From NCBI RefSeq assembly GCF_048403405.1, contig NZ_CP183129.1: a stretch of DNA of 64,000 nt. One strand, given 5' to 3'. Shown here in pieces: positions 3,998-62,293 of this stretch (the first letter of the stretch is position 1; every line of letters begins with the position of its first letter). Position numbers and translations under genes: made by a program. The notes beneath the pieces are model-generated. The model made no database searches. It was given only the letters and a program-made list of their open reading frames with translations, and was not told the DNA's origin. Source of the DNA: Escherichia coli. Its GTDB lineage: Bacteria; Pseudomonadota; Gammaproteobacteria; Enterobacterales; Enterobacteriaceae.

Positions 3998-4057
3998 TAC
4001 TGCTCCTGAGATATTAACAGGAGTAAGTGTAGACGTTGGGAAATGATGTTTGTGAAG

Positions 4058-5615: not shown

Positions 5616-5706
5616 TCGCAGTGATCTATATGCCAACGTCATCTTATTTTTCATCTACTCCAACGAGTAGACAAGTTTTTTATTAAACCATTTATACCTT
5701 TTACGA

Positions 5707-10358: not shown

Positions 10359-10546
10359 CTGCTCATCCTTGTTTTATCGGGTTATTTGTCTGCTGACAGG
10401 CGAAACCCTACAGATTTATAAGAAAGCCTTAAGTGAGATATCTGTCAGATAAGAACAATTAGGAAAATATTTATATATATTTCATGAATATATGTTTCGA
10501 TTGGTATAACGGTGTCTAAATATTCCTCTGAACATCTTCCTGATAC

Positions 10547-10580
10547 AAAAAAAACCGCCAGCGTTTCCGCTGGCGGTTTT
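10547..10580. terminator. Rho-independent terminator hairpin (aaaaaaaaccgccagcgtttccgctggcggtttt)
   Basis: GC stem ccgccagcg/cgctggcgg flanked by an A-run and a T-run, just downstream of ybfA on the minus strand. Confidence 0.6.
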
Positions 10581-10602
10581 CAATGTATTCAAAACTCAGC
10601 AA

Positions 10603-10809
10603 TCAGTAAAAATCACCAGTTGCCTTTTCGGCCTGATCCATCCACACCGGTTTCTCGCTGGTTTTCGACCAGACGCGGTGCAGGTAGCTGTAAAAGCGGG
10701 CGCGGTCTTTCCAGAAAAGCATGAAAGGCAGCGCCAGAACGCCCGCTGCAACCGCATAAGTACGGCGTAAAAAGATAAGCCATGCAGGATATTCTCTGTA
10801 GAGTTCCAT
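10603..10809 (-). CDS. ybfA: DUF2517-family small protein YbfA
   Basis: 68-aa [71 protein letters not shown] at the expected position between rhsC and the kdp operon. Confidence 0.8.
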
Positions 10810-11018
10810 ACTTTTCTCCCCCTTTTGTATCTACCCGGTGAATGGCACCGGAAAAATGAATTTGTTTATCTGATGAAAATAGTACCGCCTTTTGTGTAAT
10901 TTTACTACTCATCCGACCACCTATTTTTGCTTATTGATGGTTTATTTACATTCACACTGTAATTAAGTTACACAAAAGTTAAATTAATACTAACCATCAG
11001 TTAAATCATGGCTTTTGC

Positions 11019-11048
11019 CATTTTTATACTTTTTTTACACCCCGCCCG
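11019..11048 (+). promoter_or_regulatory. kdpFABC promoter region with KdpE-binding site (catttttatactttttttacaccccgcccg)
   Basis: T-rich element about 75 bp upstream of the kdpF start; matches my recollection of the KdpE operator in the kdpFABC promoter. Confidence 0.55.
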
Positions 11049-11121
11049 CAGATTTTTGCGAAATCTTTGCAGCCAGAATTCTACTCTTCCGGTATCACTT
11101 TTAGGCCACTGGAGGTGCACT

Positions 11122-11211
11122 GTGAGTGCAGGCGTGATAGCCGGCGTGTTGCTGGTGTTTTTATTACTGGGTTATCTGGTTTATGCCCTGATCAATGCGG
11201 AGGCGTTCTGA
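11122..11211 (+). CDS. kdpF: K+-transporting ATPase small subunit KdpF
   Basis: GTG-initiated 29-codon ORF giving [29 protein letters not shown]; its TGA (11209..11211) overlaps the kdpA ATG by 1 nt. Embedded in the longer track ORF 11008..11211. Confidence 0.85.
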
Positions 11212-12884: not shown

Positions 12885-12906
12885 TGATATTGAGTGAGCA
12901 CTGAAT

Positions 12907-14955
12907 ATGAGTCGTAAACAACTGGCGCTATTCGAACCAACACTTGTCGTTCAGGCGCTGAAAGAAGCGGTGAAAAAATTAAACCCGCAGGCGCAATGGC
13001 GCAATCCGGTGATGTTTATCGTCTGGATCGGCAGTCTGCTGACCACCTGTATTAGCATCGCGATGGCAAGCGGTGCGATGCCTGGCAATGCGCTGTTTAG
13101 CGCGGCCATTAGCGGCTGGCTGTGGATCACCGTACTGTTCGCTAATTTCGCCGAGGCGCTGGCAGAAGGCCGCAGTAAAGCGCAGGCCAACAGCCTGAAA
13201 GGGGTGAAAAAAACTGCCTTTGCCCGCAAGCTGTGTGAGCCGAAATATGGCGCTGCGGCGGACAAAGTTCCCGCCGATCAACTGCGTAAAGGCGATATCG
13301 TACTGGTAGAAGCTGGCGATATTATCCCCTGCGATGGTGAAGTCATTGAAGGGGGCGCATCGGTCGATGAAAGCGCCATCACCGGGGAATCGGCACCGGT
13401 GATCCGTGAATCCGGCGGCGATTTTGCCTCCGTCACTGGCGGCACGCGTATTCTTTCTGACTGGCTGGTGATTGAGTGCAGCGTTAACCCCGGCGAGACA
13501 TTTCTGGATAGGATGATCGCGATGGTGGAAGGCGCACAGCGACGCAAAACGCCGAACGAGATTGCCCTGACCATTCTCCTGATTGCCCTGACTATCGTCT
13601 TTTTACTGGCAACCGCCACGCTGTGGCCGTTTTCCGCGTGGGGCGGTAATGCAGTGAGTGTAACGGTACTGGTGGCGCTGCTGGTCTGTCTGATCCCAAC
13701 CACTATTGGCGGCCTGTTGTCAGCGATCGGCGTCGCCGGGATGAGTCGGATGCTGGGCGCGAATGTGATTGCCACCAGCGGACGTGCAGTTGAAGCGGCA
13801 GGTGACGTTGACGTTCTGCTACTGGATAAAACCGGCACCATCACACTCGGTAACCGTCAGGCGTCGGAGCTTATCCCCGCGCAGGGCGTGGATGAAAAAA
13901 CGCTGGCTGACGCCGCACAACTGGCTTCACTGGCTGATGAAACGCCGGAAGGCCGCAGTATTGTGATCCTCGCCAAGCAGCGTTTTAACCTGCGCGAGCG
14001 CGATGTGCAGTCGCTCCATGCCACCTTTGTACCGTTTACTGCGCAAAGCCGGATGAGCGGGATCAACATCGACAACCGCATGATCCGTAAAGGTTCTGTC
14101 GATGCCATTCGCCGCCATGTTGAGGCTAACGGCGGTCACTTCCCTGCCGATGTCGATCAAAAAGTCGATCAGGTTGCGCGTCAGGGAGCCACGCCGCTGG
14201 TAGTAGTAGAAGGCTCCCATGTGCTTGGCGTTATTGCGCTGAAAGATATCGTCAAAGGCGGTATTAAAGAGCGCTTCGCCCAGCTGCGCAAAATGGGCAT
14301 TAAAACGGTGATGATTACCGGCGATAACCGTCTGACTGCCGCCGCGATAGCTGCGGAAGCGGGTGTCGATGATTTTCTCGCCGAAGCGACACCGGAGGCC
14401 AAGCTGGCATTGATTCGTCAGTATCAGGCGGAAGGCCGTTTGGTGGCGATGACCGGCGACGGCACCAACGATGCTCCGGCGCTGGCGCAGGCAGATGTCG
14501 CGGTGGCGATGAACTCTGGTACTCAGGCGGCGAAAGAAGCGGGCAATATGGTGGATCTCGACTCTAACCCGACCAAGTTGATCGAGGTGGTACATATTGG
14601 CAAACAGATGCTGATGACCCGTGGCTCGCTGACCACCTTCAGCATTGCCAACGATGTGGCGAAATACTTCGCCATTATTCCGGCGGCGTTCGCGGCAACG
14701 TATCCACAGTTAAATGCGCTGAACATCATGCGCCTGCATTCGCCCGACTCCGCCATTCTCAGTGCGGTCATTTTCAACGCCTTGATTATCGTCTTTTTGA
14801 TTCCCCTGGCGTTAAAAGGCGTGAGTTATAAACCGCTTACCGCTTCTGCCATGTTGCGCCGTAACTTATGGATTTACGGTCTGGGTGGGCTGCTGGTGCC
14901 GTTTATTGGTATCAAAGTCATTGATTTACTGCTGACCGTTTGCGGTCTGGTGTGA
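12907..14955 (+). CDS. kdpB: K+-transporting P-type ATPase subunit B
   Basis: 682 aa with the P-type phosphorylation motif DKTGTIT ([12 protein letters not shown]) and the [11 protein letters not shown] hinge motif. Confidence 0.95.
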
Positions 14956-18213: not shown

Positions 18214-18887
18214 CAAACGTTCTGATTGTTGAAGATGAACAGGCTATTCGTCGCTTTCTGCGCACGGCGCTGGAGGGCGACGGTATGCGCGTCTTTGAGG
18301 CCGAAACGCTGCAACGCGGCTTGCTGGAAGCGGCAACCCGTAAGCCAGATTTGATTATTCTCGATCTCGGCCTGCCCGATGGTGATGGGATTGAGTTTAT
18401 CCGCGACCTGCGCCAGTGGAGCGCGGTGCCGGTGATTGTGCTTTCCGCACGTAGCGAAGAGAGCGATAAAATCGCCGCGCTGGATGCCGGAGCGGATGAT
18501 TACCTGAGTAAGCCATTTGGTATTGGCGAATTGCAGGCCCGTCTGCGCGTCGCTTTACGCCGCCACTCCGCCACCACCGCGCCCGATCCGCTGGTGAAAT
18601 TTTCCGATGTTACCGTCGATTTAGCGGCTCGTGTGATCCATCGCGGTGACGAAGAGGTGCATCTCACCCCGATTGAGTTCCGCCTGCTGGCGGTGCTACT
18701 TAACAATGCCGGAAAAGTACTCACCCAGCGCCAGTTACTCAATCAGGTGTGGGGACCAAACGCGGTCGAACACAGTCATTATTTGCGTATTTATATGGGG
18801 CATCTGCGACAAAAACTGGAACAGGATCCCGCCCGGCCTCGCCATTTCATTACTGAAACCGGTATTGGGTATCGGTTTATGCTTTAG
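18210..18887 (+). CDS. kdpE: Response regulator KdpE (OmpR family)
   Basis: 225 aa; GTG start overlapping the kdpD stop (GTGA), receiver domain (IILDLGLPDGDG) and winged-helix C-terminus. Confidence 0.95.
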   Translation: MTNVLIVEDEQAIRRFLRTALEGDGMRVFEAETLQRGLLEAATRKPDLIILDLGLPDGDGIEFIRDLRQWSAVPVIVLSARSEESDKIAALDAGADDYLSKPFGIGELQARLRVALRRHSATTAPDPLVKFSDVTVDLAARVIHRGDEEVHLTPIEFRLLAVLLNNAGKVLTQRQLLNQVWGPNAVEHSHYLRIYMGHLRQKLEQDPARPRHFITETGIGYRFML

Positions 18888-18894
18888 GCGGTTA

Positions 18895-18995
18895 AATGCT
18901 GGATCCGGCATGAACGCCTTATCCGGCCTACAAAATAGCGCAAATTCAATATATTGCACCATCCTCGCAGGCCTGATAAGCGTAGCGCATCAGGC
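18895..18995. repeat. REP/palindromic-unit-like elements in the kdpE-pgm intergenic region
   Basis: Imperfect palindromes ccggcatgaacgccttatccgg and gcctgataagcgtagcgcatcaggc, typical of enterobacterial REP sequences. Confidence 0.55.
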
Positions 18996-28027: not shown

Positions 28028-28246
28028 CGTGGATTCCTCAAAGCGTAAACAACGTATAACGGCGTATGATCTTATAAGCGGGACAGGCTGACAACTGTTA
28101 GTTAGTGAAAAAGTGGTTTTGCGTAAGATATTGGGGCGTTTTCTGCGCTACAGCCAGCAGATCCTCGCGCTGGAGACGTAAGGCCAAACGTCGCCAGCCT
28201 GACGCGTCTATTAAATTTCCGGATGAGCTGGCCGCAGAGTCGTAGA

Positions 28247-29008
28247 TTAATCGGCTATGATTAAACGCGTCGATAAGGACGCAAGCGTTCTACGCGTCTG
28301 CCCATCAAGCTGATTATCCGTAATAATCTCTGTCAGTTCATTAAGATGCGCGATATTAAACAGCGACCATGAACCGTATTTTGAGCTGTCAGCCAGGAGA
28401 ATTTTGCGCGAAGCATGCGCGATAAGATCGCGTTTTAGTGCGGCTTTCTCTTCCGTGGGTGCTGTAATACCCTTTTCAAGATCCCAGCTGTTACAGCTTA
28501 AAAATGCCACGTCCGGCCAGGTATTTTGCAGCAATTTACGACCATGTTCGCCAATGCAGGACTGGCTGGAGTCGTCGATACGTCCACCGATAATCGTCAC
28601 TTCAATCTGCTTGAATTCAGCCAAAAAAAGCGCGATATGCAGGTCGCTGGTGATCACGCGAAGCGGTAAATGTGTAATCTGCCGCGCAAGTTCAATCATT
28701 GTCGTACCGGCATCAAGGACGACGGAATCCCCCGCTTTGACCATTGACGCCGCTGCGCTGGCGATGGCATGTTTTTCCGCCAGGCTGCGCTGCATTTTCT
28801 CATGGGTAGTCGGTTGGGTAGGAATAAACCGGTTGAGGGTCACACCGCCGTGTGTACGGCTGATAACACCCTGCTCATCGAGTTTTATCAGGTCTCGACG
28901 AATCGTGGCCGGCGACGCATTGGTTACCGCCACCAGCTCATCAACGGTGACCAGATTATGGCTTTTCAGGTAATCCATGATCTGCTCTAACCGGTTATAT
29001 CCCTTCAT
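28247..29008 (-). CDS. DeoR-family transcriptional regulator (island gene)
   Basis: 253 aa with N-terminal HTH ([37 protein letters not shown]) and a DeoR-type C-terminal sugar-phosphate sensor domain. Its start codon lies 1 nt from the stop of the upstream PdxA-family gene. Confidence 0.8.
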
Positions 29009-29009
29009 T

Positions 29010-29996
29010 TTATTCTCGCGAAATCTGCATTGCTAACTGGATGGAAACTGCCATGCTCTCAGACTTGGCTTTTCCTGTCCAGGCAATATCAAACGCGGTG
29101 CCGTGGTCGGCAGAAGTGCGAATAAATGGCAACCCGGCGGTGATATTCACCCCATCATAAAATCCAAGCAGTTTTAAAGGGATATGCCCCTGATCGTGGT
29201 ACATAGCCACTACCATATCGAATAGCCCTTCATGGCATTGCATAAACACGGTATCTGGCGGGCACGGGCCAGTAACATCAATATCTTCGGCCTGCATTGC
29301 TTCAATCGCAGGCGCGATAATCTCGATTTCTTCAGTGCCGAATAAACCGTGTTCCCCTGCATGTGGATTTACACCCGCCACGGCAATACGCGGACGCTCA
29401 ATACCAACACGTTTCAGGAAGTGGTTCGCAACTCGAATAACCGTTTTGACCCTTTCACCATTCAAAGTATCCAGGAATTTACGCAGTGAGATATGCGTCG
29501 AAATATGGATAACCTTGAGCTTATCGGTATAGAGCACCATCGCGTACTCTTTGCTGCCGGTAAGATGGGCCAGCAATTCCGTATGCCCCGGATAGTTATG
29601 CCCGCCAAGATGCAACGCTTCTTTATTCAGCGGCGCAGTGGCTATGGCTTTCACCTCGCCTGATAAGGCCAGGGCCGTTGCACGTTTGATACAGCGATAC
29701 GCTAAATCGCCTGCCGCAGCCTGTACCACTCCGGGTGTCAGCGCATCGGGGTTAGCCAGCGGCTCATCCATCACGTTAATCACGCCGGGAGCAAAATGGG
29801 CGTCGCACACCTTTTCAATGACGCGTAACTCTGCCTTCGGCGTGATATTCATCGCCATAATACGTCTCAGCGTGCGCACACAGCCCACCACCACCACCGG
29901 GGCACCAGCAAGCCCGGCTTCGCTCAGGGATTTAATAATGATCTCCGGGCCAATACCCGCCGGGTCGCCCATCGTTACCGCAATAATATTATTCAC
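29010..29996 (-). CDS. PdxA-family NAD-dependent dehydrogenase (PdxA2-like)
   Basis: 328 aa; N-terminus [22 protein letters not shown] matches the PdxA GxPxGIGPE signature, and [11 protein letters not shown] matches the conserved metal-binding His region. Confidence 0.8.
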
Positions 29997-31227
29997 TACG
30001 CTTCTCCTCGATAAAATTCAGAACCTGATGCAACGTGGTCTCATCGCCAAACCCACCGGCTTTCGTCATCACCGAACGGGACCAGACGCCGCCCAGAAAG
30101 TGACCGTATGGAACGCATTGCGCCACCTTCGCCGTAATACGAAATCCGGTCGCGCCTAACGCACTGGCTGTTGCCATTGCGACATCACCACCAGAGAGAT
30201 AAAGCGCATCGGGCATTGCGCGAAGCAGAACTTGCCGGGTAAGTTCGCCAAGAAACCGGCAAATTTTTTCCCCAAGCGCAGCGCGACTCATCTGCCAACG
30301 CTGGCAAAGGGTGTCGATCTGGTGCCTTGCTACAGAATCGTTACAGGTGTGGACAATGCAGTGGTCGCCTTTCTGCAAGGCCTGCACAATACGCGCGTCA
30401 TAGTCACTGGCATTGCCTGCCAGAATGTGTTCAACATCGACGTATATCTGTGTGATACGTGGGTGTGAATGAAGTGTGGCGATCTGCCGTTGAGCGATTT
30501 CGCTCATTGAACCAATAATGGCCAGCACGGTGGGTGGCGGCATAATCGTGGAGCGCCGGGCAACGGCATCACAAATACCAGCGGAGCCGACCAGCAGCAG
30601 CGGTTGTTTAGCCTGCATCACAGCGGCAGCGATGCGATCCAGGTCGCTGTCCGTCTGCGCATCTATCACGCCAATCCACGGTTGCTCATAAGACAAATGG
30701 CTGAGCTGAGAAACCGTAACGGGCTGGCATGGAATGGCCGTCTGCAACCGGATGATGTCCGCAATTCGGGCGCTCAATACCGGGGTTTTCGGATCGCTGG
30801 CAAACTCGGTTTCCGTTATCCGCACACCGTTTACCCAACACTCACCGGCCACTGTGGTCCTTCCCGCCTGAGGAAATGCGGGGGCAACCACTGCGCCCGT
30901 TATACCGCATGCCTTCATCAGGGCTTCAATTTCTGCGCCAATATTGCCTCGCAGCGTGGAATCTATCTTTTTAATCACGAGCGGAGGGTTATTCGCCAGA
31001 GGGAGATGACTCATCAGCGAGGTTATTTTCATCGCCGCCAGCTTAGGATCCATCGCCCGGCTGTCGCTGTTAATCACCCATACGCTGGCATCACCGCGAT
31101 AAGGCATTTCAAAGGCCACATCAACTGTATGCCCCACCTGCGCCAGGCTTACCCCCGCGTCATTGGCTCCCGTGAAATCATCGGCAACGACGAGAATGCT
31201 CGGCTTAGTGATTCCCTTTTCCATCAT
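29989..31227 (-). CDS. DUF1537-family four-carbon acid-sugar kinase
   Basis: N-terminal signature VVADDFTGANDAG characteristic of OtnK/DtnK-type kinases; 8-nt overlap with the downstream PdxA-family gene. Start chosen at the ATG preceded by GGAG (MMEKGITKPS...); the track ORF starts 13 codons upstream. Confidence 0.75.
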   Translation of the reverse strand: MMEKGITKPSILVVADDFTGANDAGVSLAQVGHTVDVAFEMPYRGDASVWVINSDSRAMDPKLAAMKITSLMSHLPLANNPPLVIKKIDSTLRGNIGAEIEALMKACGITGAVVAPAFPQAGRTTVAGECWVNGVRITETEFASDPKTPVLSARIADIIRLQTAIPCQPVTVSQLSHLSYEQPWIGVIDAQTDSDLDRIAAAVMQAKQPLLLVGSAGICDAVARRSTIMPPPTVLAIIGSMSEIAQRQIATLHSHPRITQIYVDVEHILAGNASDYDARIVQALQKGDHCIVHTCNDSVARHQIDTLCQRWQMSRAALGEKICRFLGELTRQVLLRAMPDALYLSGGDVAMATASALGATGFRITAKVAQCVPYGHFLGGVWSRSVMTKAGGFGDETTLHQVLNFIEEKRSE

Positions 31228-31264
31228 CACTCCAGGTTGTTTTATGATAACAATGATTATATTC

Positions 31265-31278
31265 AATCACGATTGATT
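31265..31278. promoter_or_regulatory. Operator-like inverted repeat AATCA-cgat-TGATT in the island divergent promoter
   Basis: Read directly; shares the TGATT/AATCA half-site with the second palindrome at 31360..31375. Confidence 0.4.
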
Positions 31279-31359
31279 AAATGTGAGCAAGCTCAAGTTA
31301 TTAATCACTCGAATAAATTATAAAATTAGACCATGTTACGTAGGCTACGGCATTTTGAA

Positions 31360-31375
31360 TGATTGAATTCAATCA
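31360..31375. promoter_or_regulatory. Perfect 16-bp palindrome TGATTGAATTCAATCA in the island divergent promoter
   Basis: Read directly; lies about 20 bp upstream of the Fe-ADH GTG start, consistent with a repressor operator. Confidence 0.45.
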
Positions 31376-31393
31376 CCAGAAGAGAGGTTATTT

Positions 31394-32551
31394 GTGGTAA
31401 TTATCAATAGCACGATACTGAGCGGCGCAGGCGCTATCCCTTCCCTGACGTCGCTCTTACCCGACATCAGAAAAATGCTGCTGGTCACTGACCGTAATAT
31501 TGCGCAGCTCGACGGTGTGCAGCAGATTCGCGCCTTACTGGAAAAGCACTGCCCGCAGGTTAACGTTATCGATAATGTGCCCGCAGAGCCCACGCATCAT
31601 GATGTGCGCCAGCTAATGGACGCCCCTGGCGATGCCTCTTTTGATGTGGTGGTCGGGATCGGCGGTGGCAGCGTGTTGGATGTGGCGAAGCTGCTATCGG
31701 TGCTTTGCCATCCACAATCACCAGGGCTGGATGCGCTGCTTGCGGGTGAAAAACCGACTCAGAGGGTGCAATCATGGTTGATTCCTACAACCGCCGGAAC
31801 CGGCTCAGAAGCCACGCCGAATGCGATTCTGGCAATCCCTGAGCAAAGCACGAAGGTGGGTATTATTTCCCCGGTGCTGTTACCAGACTATGTGGCGCTT
31901 TTCCCGGAACTGACCACCAGCATGCCCGCGCATATTGCGGCGTCCACGGGCATTGATGCTCTTTGCCACTTACTGGAGTGTTTTACCGCGACCGTGGCAA
32001 ATCCGGTCAGCGATAACGCGGCGCTGACTGGGTTAAGTAAGCTTTTCCGGCACATTCAACCCGCCGTGAACGATCCTCAGGATCTGCGCGCAAAACTGGA
32101 AATGCTGTGGGCGTCTTACTATGGCGGCGTAGCGATAACCCATGCGGGCACGCATCTCGTTCATGCGCTCTCCTACCCGTTAGGTGGCAAATATCATCTG
32201 CCGCATGGCGTCGCGAATGCCATCTTGCTGGCGCCGTGCATGGCGTTTGTTCGCCCCTGGGCGGTCGAGAAATTTGCCCGGGTCTGGGATTGCATTCCCG
32301 ATGCGGAAACCGCCCTGAGCGCGGAAGAAAAATCTCATGCCCTGGTGGCCTGGCTACAGGCATTAGTCAATCAACTCAAGCTACCCAACAATCTCGCGGA
32401 TCTCGGCGTACCGCCAGAGGATATTGCCTCTCTTAGCGAGGCGGCACTGAACGTGAAGCGCCTTATGAACAATGCGCCGTGCCAGCTTGATCTACAGGAC
32501 GTACAGGCCATTTACCAAACACTGTTTCCGCAACATCAATTTAAGGAATAA
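31394..32551 (+). CDS. Iron-containing (group III) alcohol dehydrogenase family oxidoreductase
   Basis: 385 aa; NAD-binding GGGSxxD motif (VGIGGGSVLDVAKLL) and conserved His cluster (HALSYPLGGKYHLPHGVANA). GTG start preceded by GAGAGG. Confidence 0.8.
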   Translation: MVIINSTILSGAGAIPSLTSLLPDIRKMLLVTDRNIAQLDGVQQIRALLEKHCPQVNVIDNVPAEPTHHDVRQLMDAPGDASFDVVVGIGGGSVLDVAKLLSVLCHPQSPGLDALLAGEKPTQRVQSWLIPTTAGTGSEATPNAILAIPEQSTKVGIISPVLLPDYVALFPELTTSMPAHIAASTGIDALCHLLECFTATVANPVSDNAALTGLSKLFRHIQPAVNDPQDLRAKLEMLWASYYGGVAITHAGTHLVHALSYPLGGKYHLPHGVANAILLAPCMAFVRPWAVEKFARVWDCIPDAETALSAEEKSHALVAWLQALVNQLKLPNNLADLGVPPEDIASLSEAALNVKRLMNNAPCQLDLQDVQAIYQTLFPQHQFKE

Positions 32552-32554
32552 ATC

Positions 32555-33442
32555 ATGCCGAAAACCATTGAAGGTGTATTAACCGCCATCGTCACCCCGT
32601 TTACCGCGACCGGCAGTCTGAATATCCCGGCGTTAAAAGTGCAGGTGAATCGTCAACTGGAAGCGGGTAACGCGATTTTTTGCGGCGGCACCAACGGCGA
32701 GTTTTTTGTGTTGAATGAACAGGAGAAGCTCAGCGTTACGCAAACCTGCGTGGATGAAGTGGCTGGTCGTGCGCCGGTCGTGGCACACATTGGCGAGATC
32801 TCGACGCGCGAAACGATTCGTCTGGGTCAGCAGATTGAAAAACTTGGCGTAGATGCTGTGTCGGTCATTACCCCTTACTTCGTACCGCTGAAACAGGAAG
32901 AGTTGATTGCGCATTACAGCGCAATTGCCGACGCGCTGAGCATTCCGATGTTTCTCTATAACATCCCGGCCCGCACTGGCAATACGATCCAGCCGGAAAC
33001 CGCGCGTGCTCTGGCGTCGCATCCCAATATCATTGGGATTAAAGACAGCGCCGGAAGCGACGAAAGCCTGAAGGGTTTTCTCGATGCTGTGCGCAACATT
33101 GACGGCTTTAATGTACTCAACGGCCCGGATTCGCTGATCCATAAAGGGTTTGTCGAGGGGTGTTCAGCCTGTATCTCTGGGCTCGCCAACGTCGCACCGC
33201 GGGAAATCAATGCTATCTGGTCTCGCGTCCATGCCGGTGATATTGAAGGGTCTTATGAAGCACAGGAGAGTGTAACGGGCCTGCGTACCGACCTTTATAA
33301 AGTAGCGTTCTCCCCGGCTGCGGTGAAAAAAGCGTTGCAGCTTATGGGGCATGATGTTGGTGATAGCCGCTACGCGGTTAATTTCACGCCTGAACAGATC
33401 AGCGAGATTCAACAAATTATTCGTCATTATAACATTAATTAA
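32555..33442 (+). CDS. DHDPS/N-acetylneuraminate-lyase-family class I aldolase or dehydratase
   Basis: 295 aa; GTNGEF motif (CGGTNGEFFVLNEQEK), the Tyr-containing ITPYF segment and the Schiff-base lysine context IGIKDSAG, typical of DapA/NanA-family enzymes. Confidence 0.8.
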   Translation: MPKTIEGVLTAIVTPFTATGSLNIPALKVQVNRQLEAGNAIFCGGTNGEFFVLNEQEKLSVTQTCVDEVAGRAPVVAHIGEISTRETIRLGQQIEKLGVDAVSVITPYFVPLKQEELIAHYSAIADALSIPMFLYNIPARTGNTIQPETARALASHPNIIGIKDSAGSDESLKGFLDAVRNIDGFNVLNGPDSLIHKGFVEGCSACISGLANVAPREINAIWSRVHAGDIEGSYEAQESVTGLRTDLYKVAFSPAAVKKALQLMGHDVGDSRYAVNFTPEQISEIQQIIRHYNIN

Positions 33443-33501
33443 ATTAACTCTATTATCCAGCCCGCGATAAAGTTTAGATAAAGAGAATAAAGGATTACTC
33501 C

Positions 33502-34260
33502 ATGTTTTTGTGGTTTATGCAGCCAGATATCTGGCTCACTTTAATTACCCTCACCTTTCTGGAAATTATTCTTGGGGTGGATAATATTATTTTTCTTTCA
33601 CTGGTGGTGGCAAAACTTCCGTTATCACAACAAAATATGGCGCGTAAACTGGGTTTAAGCTGCGCGATGATTATGCGGATATTATTGCTGATATCCATTG
33701 CGTGGCTTTCACATATTACCCAGCCGCTTTTTACCGTGCTGACGCTGGAGATTTCGTTCCGCACGTTGATTCTGCTCGGGGGCGGGCTGTTCCTGATTTA
33801 TAAAGCGATACAGGAGATACGCGAAGAGCTGTCGCCCGCGCAGGAAGACGAACATGGCAGCGGATCGCGGCAACTGTCGTTGTGCGGTGCCATCGTACAG
33901 ATAATGCTGCTCGATATCGTGTTTAGCCTGGATTCGGTGATCACCGCCGTCGGCCTTTCTCAGCATATATTTATCATGATTGCCGCCGTAATGATTGCCG
34001 TCGGTGTCATGATGTTTGCGGCGAAAACAATTGGTGATTTCGTTAACGCCACGCCGTCAATAAAAATACTGGCGTTAACCTTTTTATTATTTGTCGGTGT
34101 ATTGCTGGTTGCCGATAGTCTCAACATTCATATTGCCAAAGAGTATCTCTACTTCGCGATATTTTTCTCATTAAGTGTTGAGACACTCAATATTATCCGT
34201 GAAAGAAGAAATAAAAAAGTTTCGACATTGATCGAAACGCATGAATCGCACTCGCATTAA
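33502..34260 (+). CDS. TerC-family integral membrane protein
   Basis: 252 aa, multiple TM segments, paired TerC motifs GVDNIIF and LDIVFSLDSV. Confidence 0.7.
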   Translation: MFLWFMQPDIWLTLITLTFLEIILGVDNIIFLSLVVAKLPLSQQNMARKLGLSCAMIMRILLLISIAWLSHITQPLFTVLTLEISFRTLILLGGGLFLIYKAIQEIREELSPAQEDEHGSGSRQLSLCGAIVQIMLLDIVFSLDSVITAVGLSQHIFIMIAAVMIAVGVMMFAAKTIGDFVNATPSIKILALTFLLFVGVLLVADSLNIHIAKEYLYFAIFFSLSVETLNIIRERRNKKVSTLIETHESHSH

Positions 34261-34295
34261 TAAATCTATTACCGACTTTAAGATGGAGTCTAACT

Positions 34296-35465
34296 ATGTC
34301 TGTAGCCCTTATTCGTGACGGCGTCATCCGTCCATCCGAAAACGATTCGCATGTGCTTACCGCCATGCTGCCCTCGTCCTGCCCACAAAACCACGCGGCG
34401 AATATTCTGCCTTTGCCGGATGGCGCGTTAATGTGCGTCTGGTTTGCGGGAACGCAGGAAGGTATTGCCGATATTTCTGTCTGGGGATCGCGATTGCCCG
34501 CTGGCGGGATGCAGTGGAGCGATGCGGTCAAACTTTCCCACGATGACACGCGTTCAGAGCAAAACCCAGTGCTGTTTCTCGCGCCGGATAACGTGCTGTG
34601 GCTGCTATGGACCGCACAAATATCCGGGAATCAGGACACCGCCATCGTCCGCTACCGTAAGTCAGACGACCTCGGACAAACCTGGGGCGAGATTGCCACG
34701 CTGCTCGATAAACCCGGCACGTTCATTCGCCAGCCGATCACGGTGCTTGATAACGGCAACTGGCTGCTGCCCGTCTTTTATTGCCGTACCCAACCCGGTG
34801 AAAAATGGGTCGGCAATGATGATATCAGCGCAGTGAAAATTTCCGCTGACGGTGGTCACTCCTGGCGCGATGTCGTGGTGCCGCAAAGTCTCGGCTGCGT
34901 TCATATGAATATCACAATGCTGCACGACAGTACGTTGGTTGCTCTCTTTCGAAGCCGTTGGGCAGACAACATCTATATCAGCCATTCAGTGGACAACGGC
35001 GAGAGTTGGTCGGTGCCGCAAGCTACCGAATTGCCCAACAACAATTCGTCTATTCAGGTAACGACGCTTGCCAGCGGCGAACTGGCGCTGGTGTACAACG
35101 CGATGAGTGCGGCAGGCGCAGTAGAACGTCGCGCGTCGCTTTATGACGAAATCGACGATGGCGACGACAGCCGCAAAGAACCGACAGCCGTCGGACGCTC
35201 CGCTTTCTGGGGGGCCCCACGCGCGCCGATGACGGTAGCGATTTCTGCCGATGGTGGGAAAAGCTGGCCGTGGCGGCGCAATCTCGATGAAGGCGACGGC
35301 TACTGCATGACCAACAATTCCCTGGAAAAGCTAAATCGTGAGTTCTCCTACCCCAGCATCAAACAAAGCCCGGACGGTACGCTACATATCGCTTACACCT
35401 GGTGGCGTCAGGCCATCAAGTACGTGCGCATCTCCCCCGAGTGGGTTAAGGGGCAGGCATCATGA
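34296..35465 (+). CDS. BNR/Asp-box repeat protein (sialidase-like beta-propeller), apparently cytoplasmic
   Basis: 389 aa with four Asp-box motifs (SDDLGQTW, SADGGHSW, SVDNGESW, SADGGKSW). The N-terminus MSVALIRDGVIRPSENDSHV has no signal-peptide features. Confidence 0.75.
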   Translation: MSVALIRDGVIRPSENDSHVLTAMLPSSCPQNHAANILPLPDGALMCVWFAGTQEGIADISVWGSRLPAGGMQWSDAVKLSHDDTRSEQNPVLFLAPDNVLWLLWTAQISGNQDTAIVRYRKSDDLGQTWGEIATLLDKPGTFIRQPITVLDNGNWLLPVFYCRTQPGEKWVGNDDISAVKISADGGHSWRDVVVPQSLGCVHMNITMLHDSTLVALFRSRWADNIYISHSVDNGESWSVPQATELPNNNSSIQVTTLASGELALVYNAMSAAGAVERRASLYDEIDDGDDSRKEPTAVGRSAFWGAPRAPMTVAISADGGKSWPWRRNLDEGDGYCMTNNSLEKLNREFSYPSIKQSPDGTLHIAYTWWRQAIKYVRISPEWVKGQAS

Positions 35466-35932
35466 TTATCGGTAATCTCAACCATTTGTCGCTGGCGGGG
35501 CTTCCCGCCTGGGTGAGAAATATTCTGCTGTGCCCGGAGTGTTCGTTATCGGCGTTATCCGCCAGAGAGGACGGTCGCTGGCAACCTGAAGGATGTCGGT
35601 GGTTCTGCACGCTGGGAACTTCAGACACGCAACCCGCCGAACTCCGCCATACGGAGTATCACCATCTGTGGGCCGATATCCAGGTGGTGATTACTGGTTG
35701 TGAGGGCATTAATGCGGGAACGCGGCCCATCGCTCGCGAAAACGATGAAGAACGTAAGCCCGATCTGTTTATCGCCCCATCCCCTGAAAACAGTGTCGCC
35801 ATCACTCTACACCCCGGTGATTTCGCCGTCTTTATGCCTGAGGAACCTCACCAGGCGCTGTGCGCGATTGGCGCGGCTACGTCAGTACGCAAAGCGGTCT
35901 TTAAGGTACCGCGCGACATGCTGGAAGCCTAA
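35462..35932 (+). CDS. YhcH/YjgK/YiaL (DUF386) family protein
   Basis: 156 aa; C-terminal segment LHPGDFAVFMPEEPHQALCAIG resembles the conserved PGxFxVFxPxEPH motif of the YhcH/EbgC-like family. 4-nt overlap with the upstream BNR gene. Confidence 0.7.
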   Translation: MIIGNLNHLSLAGLPAWVRNILLCPECSLSALSAREDGRWQPEGCRWFCTLGTSDTQPAELRHTEYHHLWADIQVVITGCEGINAGTRPIARENDEERKPDLFIAPSPENSVAITLHPGDFAVFMPEEPHQALCAIGAATSVRKAVFKVPRDMLEA

Positions 35933-35945
35933 AAGGAGAGAAAAA

Positions 35946-37226
35946 ATGACAATGGAAATGATCCTGGCATTAGGAATACTGGTCCTGATGATCGTGCTGA
36001 TCATGTCGGACAAAATGCCATTTGGCGCACCGCCACTGCTTGCGTGTTTATTGCTGGTTGTCTCGGGACTTTCGACCGTTCAACAGGCTTTTGCCGGATT
36101 CGTCAATCCAAGCGTGGTGATGATTGCAGGGTTTATGGTGGTCATGGCAGCGCTACAAAAAACCCGGCTTATCAGCAACGTTAAATCTGCGATGATAAGC
36201 CTGGTCAATAAAGGCAGTTACCGCAGCTACGGGCTGTTGTTAGTCATTGTTATGCTGGGTGCCAGTCTTGCAGGCACCGGCGCGACCGGTTATTACGTGC
36301 TGATTCTGTCGCTGGTATCCACCATTCCGTACAGTAAAAAGCTACCAACATCGAAATTAATGATGCCCCTGGGATTTGCCACCAACCACCCGCTTCTTCC
36401 TATCAATCTCGCGCTTCTCTTTGGCGTTACGGCGACCGTACTCGAAACCGCGGGTTTTCATCAGGAGATTTCGATGGGGCGCTTTGCGCTGGTGAATCTC
36501 ATCATGTCAGCGGCGTTCCTCGCATGGAGTCTTATTGCCTACCGTTTTCTTCCGGATCATCCCATTGCGGATGCTTCCGAGGATGCGCTGGCGGCACGCG
36601 AGGAAACGTTTAACGCCCTTCCTGCCTGGAAAGAATATTGCACTATTGCCGCATTCGCTGTCAGCGTTATCGGCATGATGCTAATGAACATTCTGGGAAA
36701 TATCGCCTTCGTTATTCCGGGTCTTGCGGGTGCGTTTGTTCTGATGATCGATGTACTGGACTTTAAAGAAGTTCGCGATCATATGGGAGCGCCGGTCATT
36801 TTAATGATGGCGGGGGTGATCGGTGTAGCTGATGCACTGGCGGGCACCGGCTTTACGGCGATGGTTGGCGATGCCGTTGCAGGTGTGCTCGGTTCTGGCG
36901 TCTCACCGTTTGTATTTATTGTCGCCTTTGCTTTGCTTACCAGTACCTGCGCCACCTTCACGGGTTCGAATATGGGGTCTGTTTATATTTTTGCCCCCAT
37001 CGCCATTGCCGCCTGTACCAGCCTTGGGCTTAACCCGACCGCTGCAGCGATTGCGGTGGTGATTTCAGGCTGGAACGGCGGCTATATGCCTATTGACGGA
37101 ATGCCAGCCATGATCCTCGGAATGGGGAAATACAAACTTCCCGAATTCTGGGTGTTCTCTGTACCAATGTATCTCATCCGCATTCTGGCGCTTTGTGCAG
37201 GCGCTGTTTTTATCTTCCCAATGTAA
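35946..37226 (+). CDS. Ion-transporter-superfamily anion permease (GntP/CitMHS/DASS-like), putative sugar-acid importer
   Basis: About 426 aa of polytopic membrane protein from the ATG at 35946 preceded by AGGAGA. The track ORF 35700..37226 carries an 82-codon non-membrane extension that overlaps the YhcH gene in another frame. Confidence 0.7.
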   Translation: MTMEMILALGILVLMIVLIMSDKMPFGAPPLLACLLLVVSGLSTVQQAFAGFVNPSVVMIAGFMVVMAALQKTRLISNVKSAMISLVNKGSYRSYGLLLVIVMLGASLAGTGATGYYVLILSLVSTIPYSKKLPTSKLMMPLGFATNHPLLPINLALLFGVTATVLETAGFHQEISMGRFALVNLIMSAAFLAWSLIAYRFLPDHPIADASEDALAAREETFNALPAWKEYCTIAAFAVSVIGMMLMNILGNIAFVIPGLAGAFVLMIDVLDFKEVRDHMGAPVILMMAGVIGVADALAGTGFTAMVGDAVAGVLGSGVSPFVFIVAFALLTSTCATFTGSNMGSVYIFAPIAIAACTSLGLNPTAAAIAVVISGWNGGYMPIDGMPAMILGMGKYKLPEFWVFSVPMYLIRILALCAGAVFIFPM

Positions 37227-37234
37227 TCTCAGAC

Positions 37235-46662: not shown

Positions 46663-46757
46663 TTTTGCTTTTATGAAATCCGAAAAAATCACCCATACAT
46701 AGTGGTCGTTAATGACCAGTGATACATTGCCTGCCTTCATAACAAAAGGATCTTGCA

Positions 46758-47342
46758 ATGAATTATCAGCTATTCTCACCATTCTTTACCAAAGTCATCA
46801 TGCTGCTTATCGCATTGCTTTGCATTGTTCTTGCCTCATTTGGTATTTCTGCCCCATTTTGTTACATCGTTTTTATCGGCATCATTTTCCCCGTTGCTAT
46901 ATCAATGCGCATACACCGTCTCAATGAAACAGGAACAGCACTCACACTAACCGAAAGCTCACACTGGATCGTTTACATCCATGGTTTTCCAGCTGAGGAA
47001 CAACGTGAAGTTTTGAAAAACCCCTGTTTCTGGTCAACAGAAAGAGTGAAACAGTTTTTCCTTCGCGGTCTTGCTGGCAAGGTTATTCTTCAACTCGCCT
47101 GCCTTGCACTTCTGGTCAATGAATATTTCCGCTCAACACCAGGTTCCGGGCAAGACTTACTCGCAGCAGGCGTGCTGTTTTTTATTTTGTTTTCGATAAG
47201 CAAAAATTTCTGGACGATGTATCTTCTCGCCACAGATAAATGGCAGTGCGAATCCCTGACCACCACCAGCGGTAGCCTTTGGTATCAGGGATTTCTGTGT
47301 AAAGGAAACAGAAGAGTTACGCTGTTTTCGCGGCTGGTGTAA
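46758..47342 (+). CDS. Hypothetical small membrane protein in an AT-rich tRNA-adjacent segment
   Basis: 194-aa ORF with two or three hydrophobic segments at the N-terminus (LLIALLCIVLASFGISAPFCYIVFIGIIFPVAI); convergent with ubiF with a 6-bp gap. The composition is visibly more AT-rich than its neighbours. I do not recognise the product. Confidence 0.45.
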   Translation: MNYQLFSPFFTKVIMLLIALLCIVLASFGISAPFCYIVFIGIIFPVAISMRIHRLNETGTALTLTESSHWIVYIHGFPAEEQREVLKNPCFWSTERVKQFFLRGLAGKVILQLACLALLVNEYFRSTPGSGQDLLAAGVLFFILFSISKNFWTMYLLATDKWQCESLTTTSGSLWYQGFLCKGNRRVTLFSRLV

Positions 47343-47348
47343 CAGCTA

Positions 47349-48524
47349 CTACAACCCTAACGCATATTTCAGCGCCTGACGTTTCAACATGCCAGCACGC
47401 TCCGCCGCCATCAAACCAAGATTACGCACAAAACGCAGTGGTGGCAGATTATTGCTGAATCCGGCATAGAACAGATCCATACCGCTCTGCATAATGAAGT
47501 TATCCGCCATGCGCCGCATCTGGTAACGCTTGAGGATCGGATAACTGGCCCACGCTTCGCCATAGCTGCGAGCGTTGACCAGAACGTCAATCAGGGCATC
47601 GACATCACGATAACCAAGATTCACCCCCTGCCCCGCCAGCGGATGGATGGTATGCGCGGCATCGCCCACCAGCGCAAGCCCCGGCTGCACATACTGCAAC
47701 GCATGGCGGCGCGTCAGCGGAAAAGCGCCAGCGGCAAGCGGTGTTACATACCCAAGACGCGACGGGAAATGCTTCGCGATTTCCGCCTGTAACTGCGCCA
47801 TATTCATATTCTGCAACTGGCGAATGCGTGCCGGAGAGTCATACCACACCAGCGATGCCCAGTTATCAAACAACGGCAGAAACGCACGAGGTCCATCCGG
47901 GGTAAATTGCTGCCAGGTGCTGTCGCCGGGATCGTTCTCACACTGTACGCTAATTAACATACACGACTGTGCATACTGCCAGGCATGAACGCCAATTCCC
48001 GCCATCTGCCGCACCTGGGAATTTGCGCCGTCGGCACCAATCACCAGCTTCGCGCGGATCGTTTCACCGCCCTTCAGTTCCAGCTCCTGAAGATCATTAT
48101 GGCGATGCAGCGCAATCAGCGAGCCTGGCACACGTAACGTTACTTTCGGATGCGCTTCCAGCGCCTGCCACAGCGCCTGTTGCAGAACAGTGTTTTCCAC
48201 CATGTAGCCAAGCACAGGCAGCTTTAATTCGGCTGCATCAAACACCACATGCGCCGTTTCCCACTCCCAAGTTTCCAGTCTGCGGTAAGGATGGCAACGC
48301 ATAGCCTGTACCGCGTCCCAGACGCCTAAACCTTTAAGCAATGATACCGAAGCCGCACTGATCGCCGAGATCCGCACGTCCGGCTGGCTATCAACAACAA
48401 ACGTCGCAGATTGGGCATGTTCGATAACCGTTACCGAAAATCCGTGCTGAGCCAGTCCCAGCGCCAGTGCGCCGCCGACCATTCCTCCGCCGACAATGGC
48501 AATTTCCGTTGGTTGATTTGTCAT
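47349..48524 (-). CDS. ubiF: 2-octaprenyl-3-methyl-6-methoxy-1,4-benzoquinol hydroxylase (flavin monooxygenase)
   Basis: Start set at MTNQPTEIAIVGGGMVGGALALG (FAD GxGxxG fold); about 391 aa. The track ORF begins 2 codons upstream at a TTG. Confidence 0.93.
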   Translation of the reverse strand: MTNQPTEIAIVGGGMVGGALALGLAQHGFSVTVIEHAQSATFVVDSQPDVRISAISAASVSLLKGLGVWDAVQAMRCHPYRRLETWEWETAHVVFDAAELKLPVLGYMVENTVLQQALWQALEAHPKVTLRVPGSLIALHRHNDLQELELKGGETIRAKLVIGADGANSQVRQMAGIGVHAWQYAQSCMLISVQCENDPGDSTWQQFTPDGPRAFLPLFDNWASLVWYDSPARIRQLQNMNMAQLQAEIAKHFPSRLGYVTPLAAGAFPLTRRHALQYVQPGLALVGDAAHTIHPLAGQGVNLGYRDVDALIDVLVNARSYGEAWASYPILKRYQMRRMADNFIMQSGMDLFYAGFSNNLPPLRFVRNLGLMAAERAGMLKRQALKYALGL

Positions 48525-54397: not shown

Positions 54398-54678
54398 TTG
54401 TTATACAAGGCAAAGCTTGAACCAGCATCAGTACAACCCGGTTGCACCACAGCAATCCACGGGTAGCACCAAAAGAGTGCATTTTAAGAATTTTGCTTCG
54501 GAATGGTGCGGCGCATCTCGCAAAAACAAACAATAAAACAGCAATATCTTTACATTTAACCAAACTAAATGTTACCTAACAGGCACAACACTGCACAATA
54601 AAGTTGCAGACGATAACAACACAAACACTCACAACAGGTATCCATGCGTTCTTAACGCAGAAGATAAAGGAGTTGGAT

Positions 54679-58013: not shown

Positions 58014-58949
58014 ATGGCACTGCCAATTCTGTTAGATTGCGACCCAGGTCATGACGACGCTATCGCAATAGTTCTTGCCCTCGCCTCACCAGAGCTTGAT
58101 GTCAAAGCAATTACGTCTTCCGCCGGAAACCAGACTCCAGAAAAAACCTTACGCAATGTTCTGCGTATGCTGACCTTGCTTAATCGCACCGATATTCCGG
58201 TAGCAGGCGGCGCGGTAAAACCGTTAATGCGTGAGTTGATTATCGCGGACAATGTGCACGGCGAAAGCGGTCTCGACGGCCCGGCATTACCGGAACCGAC
58301 GTTCGCACCGCAAAACTGTACGGCGGTGGAGCTGATGGCGAAAACGCTGCGTGAAAGTGCGGAACCTGTCACGATTGTGTCTACCGGACCGCAAACTAAC
58401 GTTGCCTTGCTGCTCAATAGCCATCCGGAACTGCATAGCAAAATTGCCCGTATCGTGATTATGGGCGGCGCAATGGGGCTTGGTAACTGGACGCCAGCCG
58501 CCGAGTTTAATATTTATGTTGACCCGGAAGCGGCAGAAATTGTTTTCCAGTCAGGGATCCCGGTGGTGATGGCCGGTCTGGATGTTACTCACAAAGCACA
58601 AATTCACGTTGAGGACACCGAGCGTTTCCGCGCGATTGGCAACCCTGTTTCAACCATTGTTGCCGAACTGCTGGATTTCTTCCTCGAATATCATAAAGAC
58701 GAAAAATGGGGCTTTGTCGGCGCACCGCTGCATGACCCATGCACCATCGCCTGGCTGTTAAACCCGGAGTTGTTTACCACTGTTGAGCGCTGGGTTGGCG
58801 TGGAAACACAAGGGAAATATACCCAGGGTATGACGGTTGTTGATTATTATTATCTGACCGGCAATAAACCGAATGCTACTGTAATGGTCGATGTTGATCG
58901 TCAGGGCCTTGTTGATTTACTGGCTGATCGTCTGAAATTTTACGCTTAA
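58014..58949 (+). CDS. rihA: Pyrimidine-specific ribonucleoside hydrolase
   Basis: Start set at [22 protein letters not shown] (nucleoside-hydrolase DxDxxxDD motif), 311 aa. Confidence 0.93.
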
Positions 58950-58993
58950 TCACTCGCCGGATGACATCACGCCATCCGGCACCACTCATTTCA

Positions 58994-59476
58994 TTAAGGC
59001 TCGAACGGGCGTCTCTGGAACTGGTCATGACCACATTTCGGGCATAGCGTCAGCACTTCCGGTGTGTAGATCGGGAGATGGAAATGACATTTCTCGCAGA
59101 CCAGATTACCCAGCCCTACCACTTCTCCGCTGTGATAAACCCCGTGATGATTGAGGTCCTGGAAAACTTCGCGCCATTCAAGCTGCGTTTTATCGGTGAT
59201 GTCTGCCAGCTCCTGCCACAAGCTTTCTTTAATCACCCGCATAAAGACGCTGTCAGACTCTTCTTTCAGGCTCTCTTCATAGCTCATGGCGAACTCTTCC
59301 AGGTCACGTCTGACAGCTCGCGTCAGCTCATCGACTTCGGTTCGCGTTAACTCCCCTGTTTTTATTACGCGCTCGCGCGCCTGTTCCACCAGTGCGTCGA
59401 TATCACGTTCGCCATTGCGCAGGCGTTCGCTCAGTGACGCGACCAGTTCACGGTAATATTGAGCAACCTTGTTCAT
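58994..59476 (-). CDS. ybeL: DUF1451-family protein YbeL
   Basis: 160 aa with C-terminal CxxC...CxxC zinc-ribbon (CEKCHF...CPKCGH). Confidence 0.85.
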   Translation of the reverse strand: MNKVAQYYRELVASLSERLRNGERDIDALVEQARERVIKTGELTRTEVDELTRAVRRDLEEFAMSYEESLKEESDSVFMRVIKESLWQELADITDKTQLEWREVFQDLNHHGVYHSGEVVGLGNLVCEKCHFHLPIYTPEVLTLCPKCGHDQFQRRPFEP

Positions 59477-59710
59477 CGTTTCATCTCCCGGGTCGTTAAC
59501 TGACTATAATAATAGACGTTCTTTGTTCCTTGCTTTGCTAATACGCCCACAAACTCTGTAAATTAATGTATGAATAATCCGGGCATCATTTCAACGTCGA
59601 ATGCGCGAAAGGCTGTTTTGACGCGGACGTTTGGGCTATGCTATGCGGATCTGAAAAACCACCTCAACGCTACATTTGTAGCCGTATTGAAAACAGGACC
59701 ACTGGCTGCC

Positions 59711-62293
59711 ATGCAAGAGCAATACCGCCCGGAAGAGATAGAATCCAAAGTACAGCTTCATTGGGATGAGAAGCGCACATTTGAAGTAACCGAAGACGAG
59801 AGCAAAGAGAAGTATTACTGCCTGTCTATGCTTCCCTATCCTTCTGGTCGACTACACATGGGCCACGTACGTAACTACACCATTGGTGACGTGATCGCCC
59901 GCTACCAGCGTATGCTGGGCAAAAACGTCCTGCAGCCGATCGGCTGGGACGCGTTTGGTCTGCCTGCGGAAGGCGCGGCGGTGAAAAACAACACCGCACC
60001 GGCACCGTGGACGTACGACAACATCGCGTACATGAAAAACCAGCTCAAAATGCTGGGCTTTGGTTATGACTGGAGCCGCGAGCTGGCAACCTGTACACCG
60101 GAATACTACCGTTGGGAACAGAAATTCTTCACCGAGCTGTATAAAAAAGGCCTGGTATATAAGAAGACTTCTGCAGTCAACTGGTGCCCGAACGACCAGA
60201 CCGTACTGGCGAACGAACAAGTTATCGACGGCTGCTGCTGGCGCTGCGATACCAAAGTTGAGCGTAAAGAGATCCCGCAATGGTTTATCAAAATCACCGC
60301 TTACGCTGACGAGCTGCTTAACGATCTGGATAAACTGGATCACTGGCCAGACACCGTTAAAACCATGCAGCGTAACTGGATCGGTCGTTCCGAAGGCGTG
60401 GAAATCACCTTCAACGTTAACGACTATGACAACACGCTGACCGTTTACACTACCCGCCCGGACACCTTTATGGGTTGTACCTACCTGGCGGTAGCGGCAG
60501 GTCATCCGCTGGCGCAGAAAGCGGCGGAAAATAATCCTGAACTGGCGGCCTTTATTGACGAATGCCGTAACACCAAAGTTGCCGAAGCTGAAATGGCAAC
60601 GATGGAGAAAAAAGGCGTCGATACTGGCTTTAAAGCGGTTCACCCATTAACGGGCGAAGAAATTCCCGTTTGGGCAGCAAACTTCGTATTGATGGAGTAC
60701 GGCACGGGCGCAGTTATGGCGGTTCCGGGTCACGACCAGCGCGACTACGAGTTTGCCTCTAAATACGGCCTGAATATCAAACCGGTTATCCTGGCAGCTG
60801 ACGGCTCTGAGCCAGATCTTTCTCAGCAAGCCCTGACTGAAAAAGGCGTTCTGTTCAACTCTGGCGAGTTCAACGGTCTTGACCATGAAGCGGCCTTCAA
60901 CGCTATCGCCGATAAACTGACTGCGATGGGCGTTGGCGAGCGTAAAGTGAACTACCGCCTGCGCGACTGGGGTGTTTCCCGTCAACGTTACTGGGGCGCG
61001 CCGATTCCGATGGTGACGCTGGAAGACGGTACCGTAATGCCGACCCCGGACGACCAGCTGCCGGTGATCCTGCCGGAAGATGTGGTGATGGACGGTATTA
61101 CCAGCCCGATTAAAGCAGATCCGGAGTGGGCAAAAACTACCGTTAACGGTATGCCAGCGCTGCGTGAAACCGACACTTTCGACACCTTTATGGAGTCCTC
61201 CTGGTACTATGCGCGCTACACTTGCCCGGAGTACAAAGAAGGTATGCTGGATTCCAAAGCGGCTAACTACTGGCTGCCGGTGGATATCTACATTGGTGGT
61301 ATCGAACACGCCATTATGCACCTGCTCTACTTCCGCTTCTTCCACAAACTGATGCGTGATGCAGGCATGGTGAACTCTGACGAACCAGCGAAACAGTTAC
61401 TGTGTCAGGGTATGGTGCTGGCAGATGCCTTCTACTATGTTGGCGAAAACGGCGAACGTAACTGGGTTTCCCCGGTTGATGCTATCGTTGAACGTGACGA
61501 GAAAGGCCGTATCGTGAAAGCGAAAGATGCGGCAGGCCATGAACTGGTTTATACCGGCATGAGCAAAATGTCCAAGTCGAAGAACAACGGTATCGACCCG
61601 CAGGTGATGGTTGAACGTTACGGCGCGGACACCGTTCGTCTGTTTATGATGTTTGCTTCTCCGGCTGATATGACTCTCGAATGGCAGGAATCCGGCGTGG
61701 AAGGGGCTAACCGCTTCCTGAAACGTGTCTGGAAACTGGTTTACGAGCACACAGCGAAAGGTGATGTTGCGGCACTGAACGTTGATGCGCTGACTGAAGA
61801 TCAGAAAGCGCTGCGTCGCGATGTGCATAAAACGATCGCTAAAGTGACCGATGATATCGGCCGTCGTCAGACCTTCAACACCGCAATTGCGGCGATTATG
61901 GAGCTGATGAACAAACTGGCGAAAGCACCGACCGATGGCGAGCAGGACCGCGCCCTGATGCAGGAAGCGCTGCTGGCGGTAGTCCGTATGCTTAACCCGT
62001 TCACCCCGCACATCTGCTTCACGCTGTGGCAGGAACTGAAAGGCGAAGGCGATATCGACAACGCACCGTGGCCGGTTGCTGACGAAAAAGCGATGGTGGA
62101 AGACTCCACGCTGGTCGTGGTGCAGGTTAACGGTAAAGTCCGTGCAAAAATCACCGTTCCGGTGGACGCAACGGAAGAACAGGTTCGCGAACGTGCTGGC
62201 CAGGAACATCTGGTAGCAAAATATCTTGATGGCGTTACTGTACGTAAAGTGATTTACGTACCAGGTAAACTCCTCAATCTGGTCGTTGGCTAA
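59711..62293 (+). CDS. leuS: Leucyl-tRNA synthetase
   Basis: Start set at [18 protein letters not shown] (860 aa); HMGH (HIGH-class) and KMSKS motifs present. The track ORF has a 47-codon upstream extension. Confidence 0.97.

Follow-up and report, generated by a model that had tools for sequence, protein, structure and literature searches.

E. coli has a third, specialised Hsp70, HscC, whose J-domain partners are DjlB and DjlC (PMC8215388). In the work of Kluck et al. (2002), reviewed in PMC8215388, an hscC deletion strain was viable but sensitive to Cd2+ and UV; the same review, with reference to Kluck et al. (2002) and Barriot et al. (2020), notes that the patchy occurrence of HscC has been read as a hint of horizontal transfer. 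In E. coli K-12 MG1655 the system is encoded between ybeL (stop codon at 675500) and rihA (stop codon at 683477), where 7,976 bp and seven genes separate the two; the block products are HscC, DjlB, DjlC and a pair each of DUF1266 and Sel1-repeat proteins. H-NS regulons list ybeT and ybeU-djlC (PMC5797941), and the reduced strain DGF-298, from which the block has been deleted, is viable (PMC10652928). We found no paper on a presence/absence polymorphism between rihA and ybeL, nor one giving the phylogroup of strain MS 69-1.

The GC content of the K-12 block is 42–48% over ybeQ-djlC versus 50–55% in its flanks. No integrase or transposase gene is annotated within it, no repeat is common to both of its junctions and the insertion site is not a tRNA gene; the block does not classify as a classical genomic island or integrative element. 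A PADLOC analysis of the seven block proteins gave no credible defence match, the only hits being two marginal partial ones between Sel1 proteins and PtuA (E = 1e-4 and 5e-3) with no stretch that passed alone. Insertions of IS1 or IS5 disrupt hscC in several K-12-like and pig-derived strains (records H116–H120), which fits a dispensable gene.

The window studied here, a 64,000-nucleotide stretch of E. coli DNA, carries the flanking genes of this locus in the order gltI-gltJ-gltK-gltL-rihA (plus strand), ybeL (minus strand) and leuS-lptE-holA (plus strand). The rihA gene (58014–58949, plus strand) is complete and encodes a pyrimidine-specific ribonucleoside hydrolase of 311 amino acids from its ATG, the mechanically called open reading frame beginning upstream of this start at a TTG (57981). 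Its product has 99% amino acid identity with K-12 RihA over the full 311 residues (tblastn) and falls in a cluster with the precomputed Pfam family PF01156 (IU_nuc_hydro); the DNA of strain CFSAN061763 is 100% identical at rihA and is annotated as rihA in RefSeq. The ybeL gene (58994–59476, minus strand), also complete, encodes a DUF1451 zinc-ribbon protein that is 100% identical to K-12 YbeL over 160 amino acids; orthologues are annotated with PF07295 and the gene is named ybeL in matching RefSeq genomes. On the ybeL side the locus is anchored by the core gene leuS (59711–62293, plus strand), whose product is 100% identical to K-12 LeuS (tblastn), and the order leuS-lptE-holA is that of K-12. 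As the original prediction had it, rihA (stop 58949) and ybeL (stop 58994) converge across a gap of only 44 bp, which can be read directly from the sequence at 58950–58993.

The accompanying claim that the hscC block is absent from the window was also confirmed, both by this 44-bp gap and by the finding that none of the seven K-12 block proteins has a tblastn match anywhere in the window. K-12 was checked for the same adjacency, which would have run counter to the claim, and does not have it. The content given for K-12 was accurate in its size of about 8 kb and in naming hscC, djlB/djlC, Sel1-repeat genes and ybeU; the label ybeQRTUV, however, leaves out ybeS (which is djlB) and lists djlC under its former name, ybeV. 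When the whole window was compared with K-12 670–740 kb by megablast, homology passed both stop codons and broke at window position 58956 (K-12 683471) and window position 58993 (K-12 675501), with 7,969 bp in K-12 against 36 bp of unrelated sequence in the window between these breaks. The two loci therefore have the same flanking genes at 97–98.6% DNA identity but differ in what these enclose, 7,969–7,976 bp in K-12 versus 36–44 bp here, and a hairpin in the window spacer is found at neither end of the block. Nothing of the non-essential HscC-DjlB/DjlC system encoded by the block (Kluck et al., 2002; PMC8215388) occurs in the window; the strain is without the system here and, very probably, in its genome as a whole.

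The window is E. coli of the MS 69-1 lineage: its identity with strain MS 69-1 is 99.99–100% in every segment covered, with gene order conserved in the parts that were compared, and its identity with K-12 is 97–98.6%. The suggestion of a strain or species outside the K-12-like lineage thus holds at the level of the strain but not of the species, other species being excluded. Among the references tested, strain 042 (phylogroup D) is the closest (97.2–99.1% by segment), followed at approximately 97–98.6% by K-12 (A), IAI39 (F), Sakai (E) and B2 strains.

The 44-bp spacer has the sequence TCACTCGCCGGATGACATCACGCCATCCGGCACCACTCATTTCA. Between the convergent genes it contains a perfect inverted repeat with 8-nt arms, GCCGGATG-N9-CATCCGGC (58956–58980), which is the sole match to this pattern in the window, with none expected by chance. 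RNA folding predicted a stable hairpin on both strands, with −14.8 kcal/mol (z = −3.1) for the plus strand and −23 kcal/mol (z = −4.2) for the minus strand. The GC-rich hairpin of a Rho-independent terminator is present; no U-rich tract or terminator-like site was called on either strand between 58700 and 59700 and, as no T-run follows the hairpin, it was not called as an intrinsic terminator. A search of 58500–59800 against Rfam gave no match. The element is an extragenic palindrome with the GCCGGATG and CATCCGGC arms of a REP, although it spans 25 bp with a 9-nt loop by comparison with approximately 35 bp and a consensus interior and tail (e.g. ...CGCCTTATCCGGCCTAC) in a canonical REP. As this site is taken by canonical REPs in Citrobacter, the E. 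coli element looks like a shortened copy. Its position at the 3′ end of both convergent transcripts, together with the predicted structure, suggests that the hairpin may stabilise or insulate them.

Thirty-six bases of the spacer (58957–58992) can be matched to neither end of the block allele of K-12. The 44-bp spacer had no match in the K-12 locus at up to three mismatches, and local alignment of the spacer with the block gave only generic REP similarity, to a REP between hscC and djlC; an origin of the spacer as a fusion of the block ends was rejected on these two results. One spacer is common to all of the empty alleles examined: that of IAI39, where the gap is likewise 44 bp, is identical to the window spacer, which differs by one nucleotide in CFT073 and is recognisable with several changes in the Escherichia lineage SCPM-O-B-8794, the flanks of which are approximately 95% identical. 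The junctions of CFT073 (B2) and IAI39 (F) resemble that of the window in gene order, in the 44-bp gap and in the REP-like hairpin, but their flanking genes are 2–3.5% divergent, the window flanks being nearer to 042. That one spacer is common to IAI39, CFT073 and SCPM-O-B-8794 indicates that the allele is much older than the window strain.

The frequency of the adjacency was determined in 5,426 complete E. coli genomes. A 1,051-bp junction query was matched as one piece in 964 of these (approximately 18%); the other genomes split the query at the ybeL stop. With a 76-bp query consisting almost entirely of spacer, the same junction was found at an identity of at least 97% in 889 complete genomes, including those of CFT073, ATCC 25922, APEC O18 and an O2:K1:H4 APEC strain. 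The hscC gene was present in 4,410 of the 5,426 genomes and a shortened, ST131-type block junction in 566, which gives three alleles: the full block in roughly 71% of genomes, the partial form in 10% and the empty site in 18%. The totals for hscC (4,410) and for the adjacency (964) are compatible with mutual exclusivity but fall short of proving it. The full block is present in K-12 (A), Sakai (E; with ybeQ and djlC as pseudogenes), 042 (D) and a Shigella flexneri assembly. In JJ1886 (ST131, B2) the block is without ybeR-djlB and most of ybeQ, with a short 3′ remnant of djlB retained (locus extract L091, 4489–4964). Single nucleotide polymorphisms in JJ1886 look K-12-like near ybeL and CFT073-like on the rihA side, a mixed pattern that hints at an imported allele.

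Both states therefore occur within B2, where CFT073 has the empty allele and ST131 strain JJ1886 the partial block, and apparently also within D, as 042 has the full block despite being the nearest tested reference to the window with its empty allele. Given that the states vary within phylogroups, the adjacency is a poor lineage marker, and it is unsuited as evidence either of a strain-specific deletion or of a different species. It is an ordinary, old and widespread presence/absence variant and not new biology. About one-fifth of E. coli genomes, including those of the uropathogenic strain CFT073 and of ATCC 25922, are naturally without HscC, DjlB and DjlC, and this natural lack bears on how far K-12 results on the third Hsp70 system can be generalised.

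The site was also examined across the Enterobacteriaceae in a scan based on YbeL, with each bacterial species represented by one genome, which yielded 80 loci from representatives of the family (Escherichia being covered by four representatives, with E. albertii and E. fergusonii left out). The commonest arrangement was rihA directly against ybeL (32 of the 80 representatives), followed by loci in which rihA is absent and gltL lies against ybeL (27/80) and by unrelated inserts (14/80); four were unassigned to any arrangement. The block was found in only three representatives, all Escherichia (E. whittamii, sp. E1V33 and MOD1-EC7003). In Citrobacter spp. and S. enterica subsp. arizonae the gap contains one or two REPs, which start at the same offset past the rihA stop (TAAT.CAC.CG, then CCGGATG) and terminate in ...CCATCCGGCA just ahead of the ybeL stop, again like the window; in the block allele TAA(T)ACACG is kept and the sequences then diverge. 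These REP or BIME elements resemble that of the window in their position between the same convergent genes, 6–7 nt past the rihA stop, and in their arms (CGCCGGATG ... CCATCCGGCA). They differ in being one full-length REP or a REP pair in spacers of 42–113 bp, as against the 25-bp palindrome with its 9-nt loop in E. coli.

Salmonella enterica subsp. enterica has a homologous block at this locus too, with an extra gene of 412 codons after rihA and without ybeT. The extra gene lies between rihA and hscC (8687–9925 of locus extracts L093/L094) and its 412-amino-acid product has no Pfam match; the sequence just past its stop is conserved with the region upstream of E. coli hscC (CATTGAT.AAGATCACCACGC). 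HscC has 83% identity between E. coli and Salmonella; the figure is 46–63% for DjlC, DjlB, YbeU, YbeR and YbeQ, versus 91–95% for RihA, GltL and YbeL. An HscC of E. marmotae is named in one source. In MOD1-EC7003 an extra 2.5 kb lies between ybeL and ybeQ (10481–12996 of locus extract L007), with open reading frames of 326 and 321 amino acids that have no Pfam match and one region that is 29% identical to DjlC (tblastn).

Taken with the shared spacer, these comparisons make it likely, in our assessment strongly so, that the 44-bp gap represents the empty form of a long-standing presence/absence polymorphism, in which rihA and ybeL are parted by a short REP-like palindrome. The alternative allele, as in K-12, O157 Sakai, 042, Shigella flexneri and the cryptic Escherichia clades, carries approximately 8 kb in place of the palindrome, and the MS 69-1 lineage would have inherited the unoccupied form. 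A simple deletion of a K-12-type allele cannot have produced the spacer, since 36 of its bases are absent from the block allele, and precise excision of the block is excluded because these bases are at neither block end. With no palindrome, integrase or direct repeats at the block ends, a switch of state would be expected to proceed by homologous recombination in the flanks, gltL-rihA on one side and ybeL-leuS on the other, rather than by excision. Among the variable sites within 480 bp on each side of the junction no recombination tract is visible: the window flanks follow those of the block-bearing strain 042 to within 4 bp of the junction, with some private changes, and no donor tract from the B2 or F empty alleles can be seen over the same distance. 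The locus is a tidy case of an old insertion/deletion polymorphism, one whose state would change only through recombination within its flanking core genes.

With respect to polarity, the unoccupied state is probably the ancestral arrangement, either persisting or re-acquired. This is favoured by the REP at the same offset in Citrobacter and S. enterica subsp. arizonae and by the divergence of the block allele past TAA(T)ACACG, as if the block had replaced a REP. REP elements are both repeated and mobile, and for this reason the finding of one at this site in both E. coli and Citrobacter suggests orthology but falls short of proving it; the left-junction motif common to the two is only 6–9 nt long. 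Moreover, as the block is present in Salmonella and in the cryptic Escherichia clades, the empty state in E. coli could be the derived one on the species tree. It is accordingly possible, although we think it the less probable course of events, that the ancestor of E. coli and the cryptic clades had the block and that one deletion, or two flanking the hscC-djlC REP, gave rise to the rihA-REP-ybeL arrangement, which was then spread between phylogroups by homologous recombination. Such an ancient deletion is consistent with the occurrence of the block at the same locus in S. enterica, E. whittamii, E1V33, MOD1-EC7003 and most E. coli; with the REP between the convergent hscC and djlC genes (GCCGGATGCAGCGTTTACGCCGCATCCGGC), to which the spacer has its best local match; and with ST131, which shows that the block can undergo internal deletions. 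However, the flanks of this internal REP are unlike those of the spacer, and the Salmonella block has no REP at hscC/djlC and a different left junction. Two precise deletions, or a deletion plus the gain of a REP, would further be needed to arrive at the REP offset of Citrobacter and S. enterica subsp. arizonae, and direct adjacency is the commonest state outside Escherichia. Under either polarity, both alleles predate the diversification of E. coli.

Cargo of other kinds is found downstream of ybeL in several genera: a chaperone-usher fimbrial operon in Citrobacter sp. MGH106 and Cu233; a two-partner secretion pair in Leclercia, Silvania and Klebsiella oxytoca/grimontii; and Hcp with a gene of unknown function in Enterobacter quasihormaechei. 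The site looks like a recurrent insertion point, and the variety of these inserts would support the view that the block is just one of several cargoes, the one carried by E. coli. A more far-reaching reading, that the REP-bearing gap is a cross-genus hotspot for alternative cargo and that the HscC block is a conflict-type system (defence or effector handling) maintained as a balanced polymorphism, appears improbable to us, although the lower identity of the accessory proteins between E. coli and Salmonella by comparison with the flanking proteins could mark a system of this type. Were it true, the window would represent a natural null allele.

A recent deletion of the block, specific to the window strain or its lineage, is very improbable. 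It could be suspected from strain 042, which has the full block and flanks that are 98.3–99.2% identical to those of the window up to the junction; but the spacer is identical in IAI39 (F) and has one change in CFT073 (B2), the junction is present in 889 genomes, and a deletion cannot create 36 internal bases that the block allele does not contain. This possibility is in effect refuted by the shared junction. Collapse of the locus through an assembly or scaffolding artefact, for which we saw no indication, is less credible still, as 964 finished genomes from many laboratories have the same adjacency and the PGAP annotation has rihA and ybeL as intact neighbours.

Several other sites in the window differ from K-12. 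The original prediction had also pointed to a missing speF-potE block and to a glnS-nagE island, and both were confirmed. K-12 715363–721057 (ybfP, ybfG, ybfI, potE, speF and speFL) is absent at window positions 18886–18896, between kdpE and pgm (megablast against K-12), and the kdpE-pgm adjacency is the same in MS 69-1. Strain 042 (D) likewise lacks speF-potE, with ybfP kept; IAI39 and CFSAN061763 have speF-potE. The island between glnS and nagE occupies 9.1 kb (28104–37234) and is absent from K-12. In the MS 69-1 annotation it encodes a DeoR regulator, D-threonate 4-phosphate dehydrogenase, DtnK, an iron-containing alcohol dehydrogenase, a DHDPS-family protein, TerC, a sialidase-family protein, YhcH and an SLC13 permease. 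It was found in 1,046 of the 5,426 genomes, including E2348/69 and JJ1886 (B2) at approximately 98.3% identity, and at an identity of at least 99% in only nine; the island region is 100% identical in GN02461, 4621, MS 69-1, TUM1226 and others. CFSAN061763, which is 100% identical to the window in the junction region, has speF-potE and yet lacks the glnS-nagE island, and was on these grounds ruled out as a match for the window as a whole.

Between the Met/Leu/Gln tRNA cluster and ubiF (46675–47349) the window has approximately 670 bp versus approximately 114 bp in K-12; in MS 69-1 this region holds a 585-bp gene for hypothetical protein WP_001109102.1. At lnt/gltI (54575–54579), a second small variable site 4 kb from the rihA-ybeL junction, K-12 has an IS5D that is absent from the window; CFT073, JJ1886 and 042 have a 1.9-kb rhomboid-family protease gene at this site that is not present in the window, K-12, IAI39 or Sakai. 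The Rhs region of the window (2998–7664) gives patchy, repeated matches to K-12 rhsC/ybfO/ybfL/ybfD at 91–97% identity and differs in its organisation; in 042 and IAI39 there is no Rhs element at that position and ybfA adjoins ybgA.
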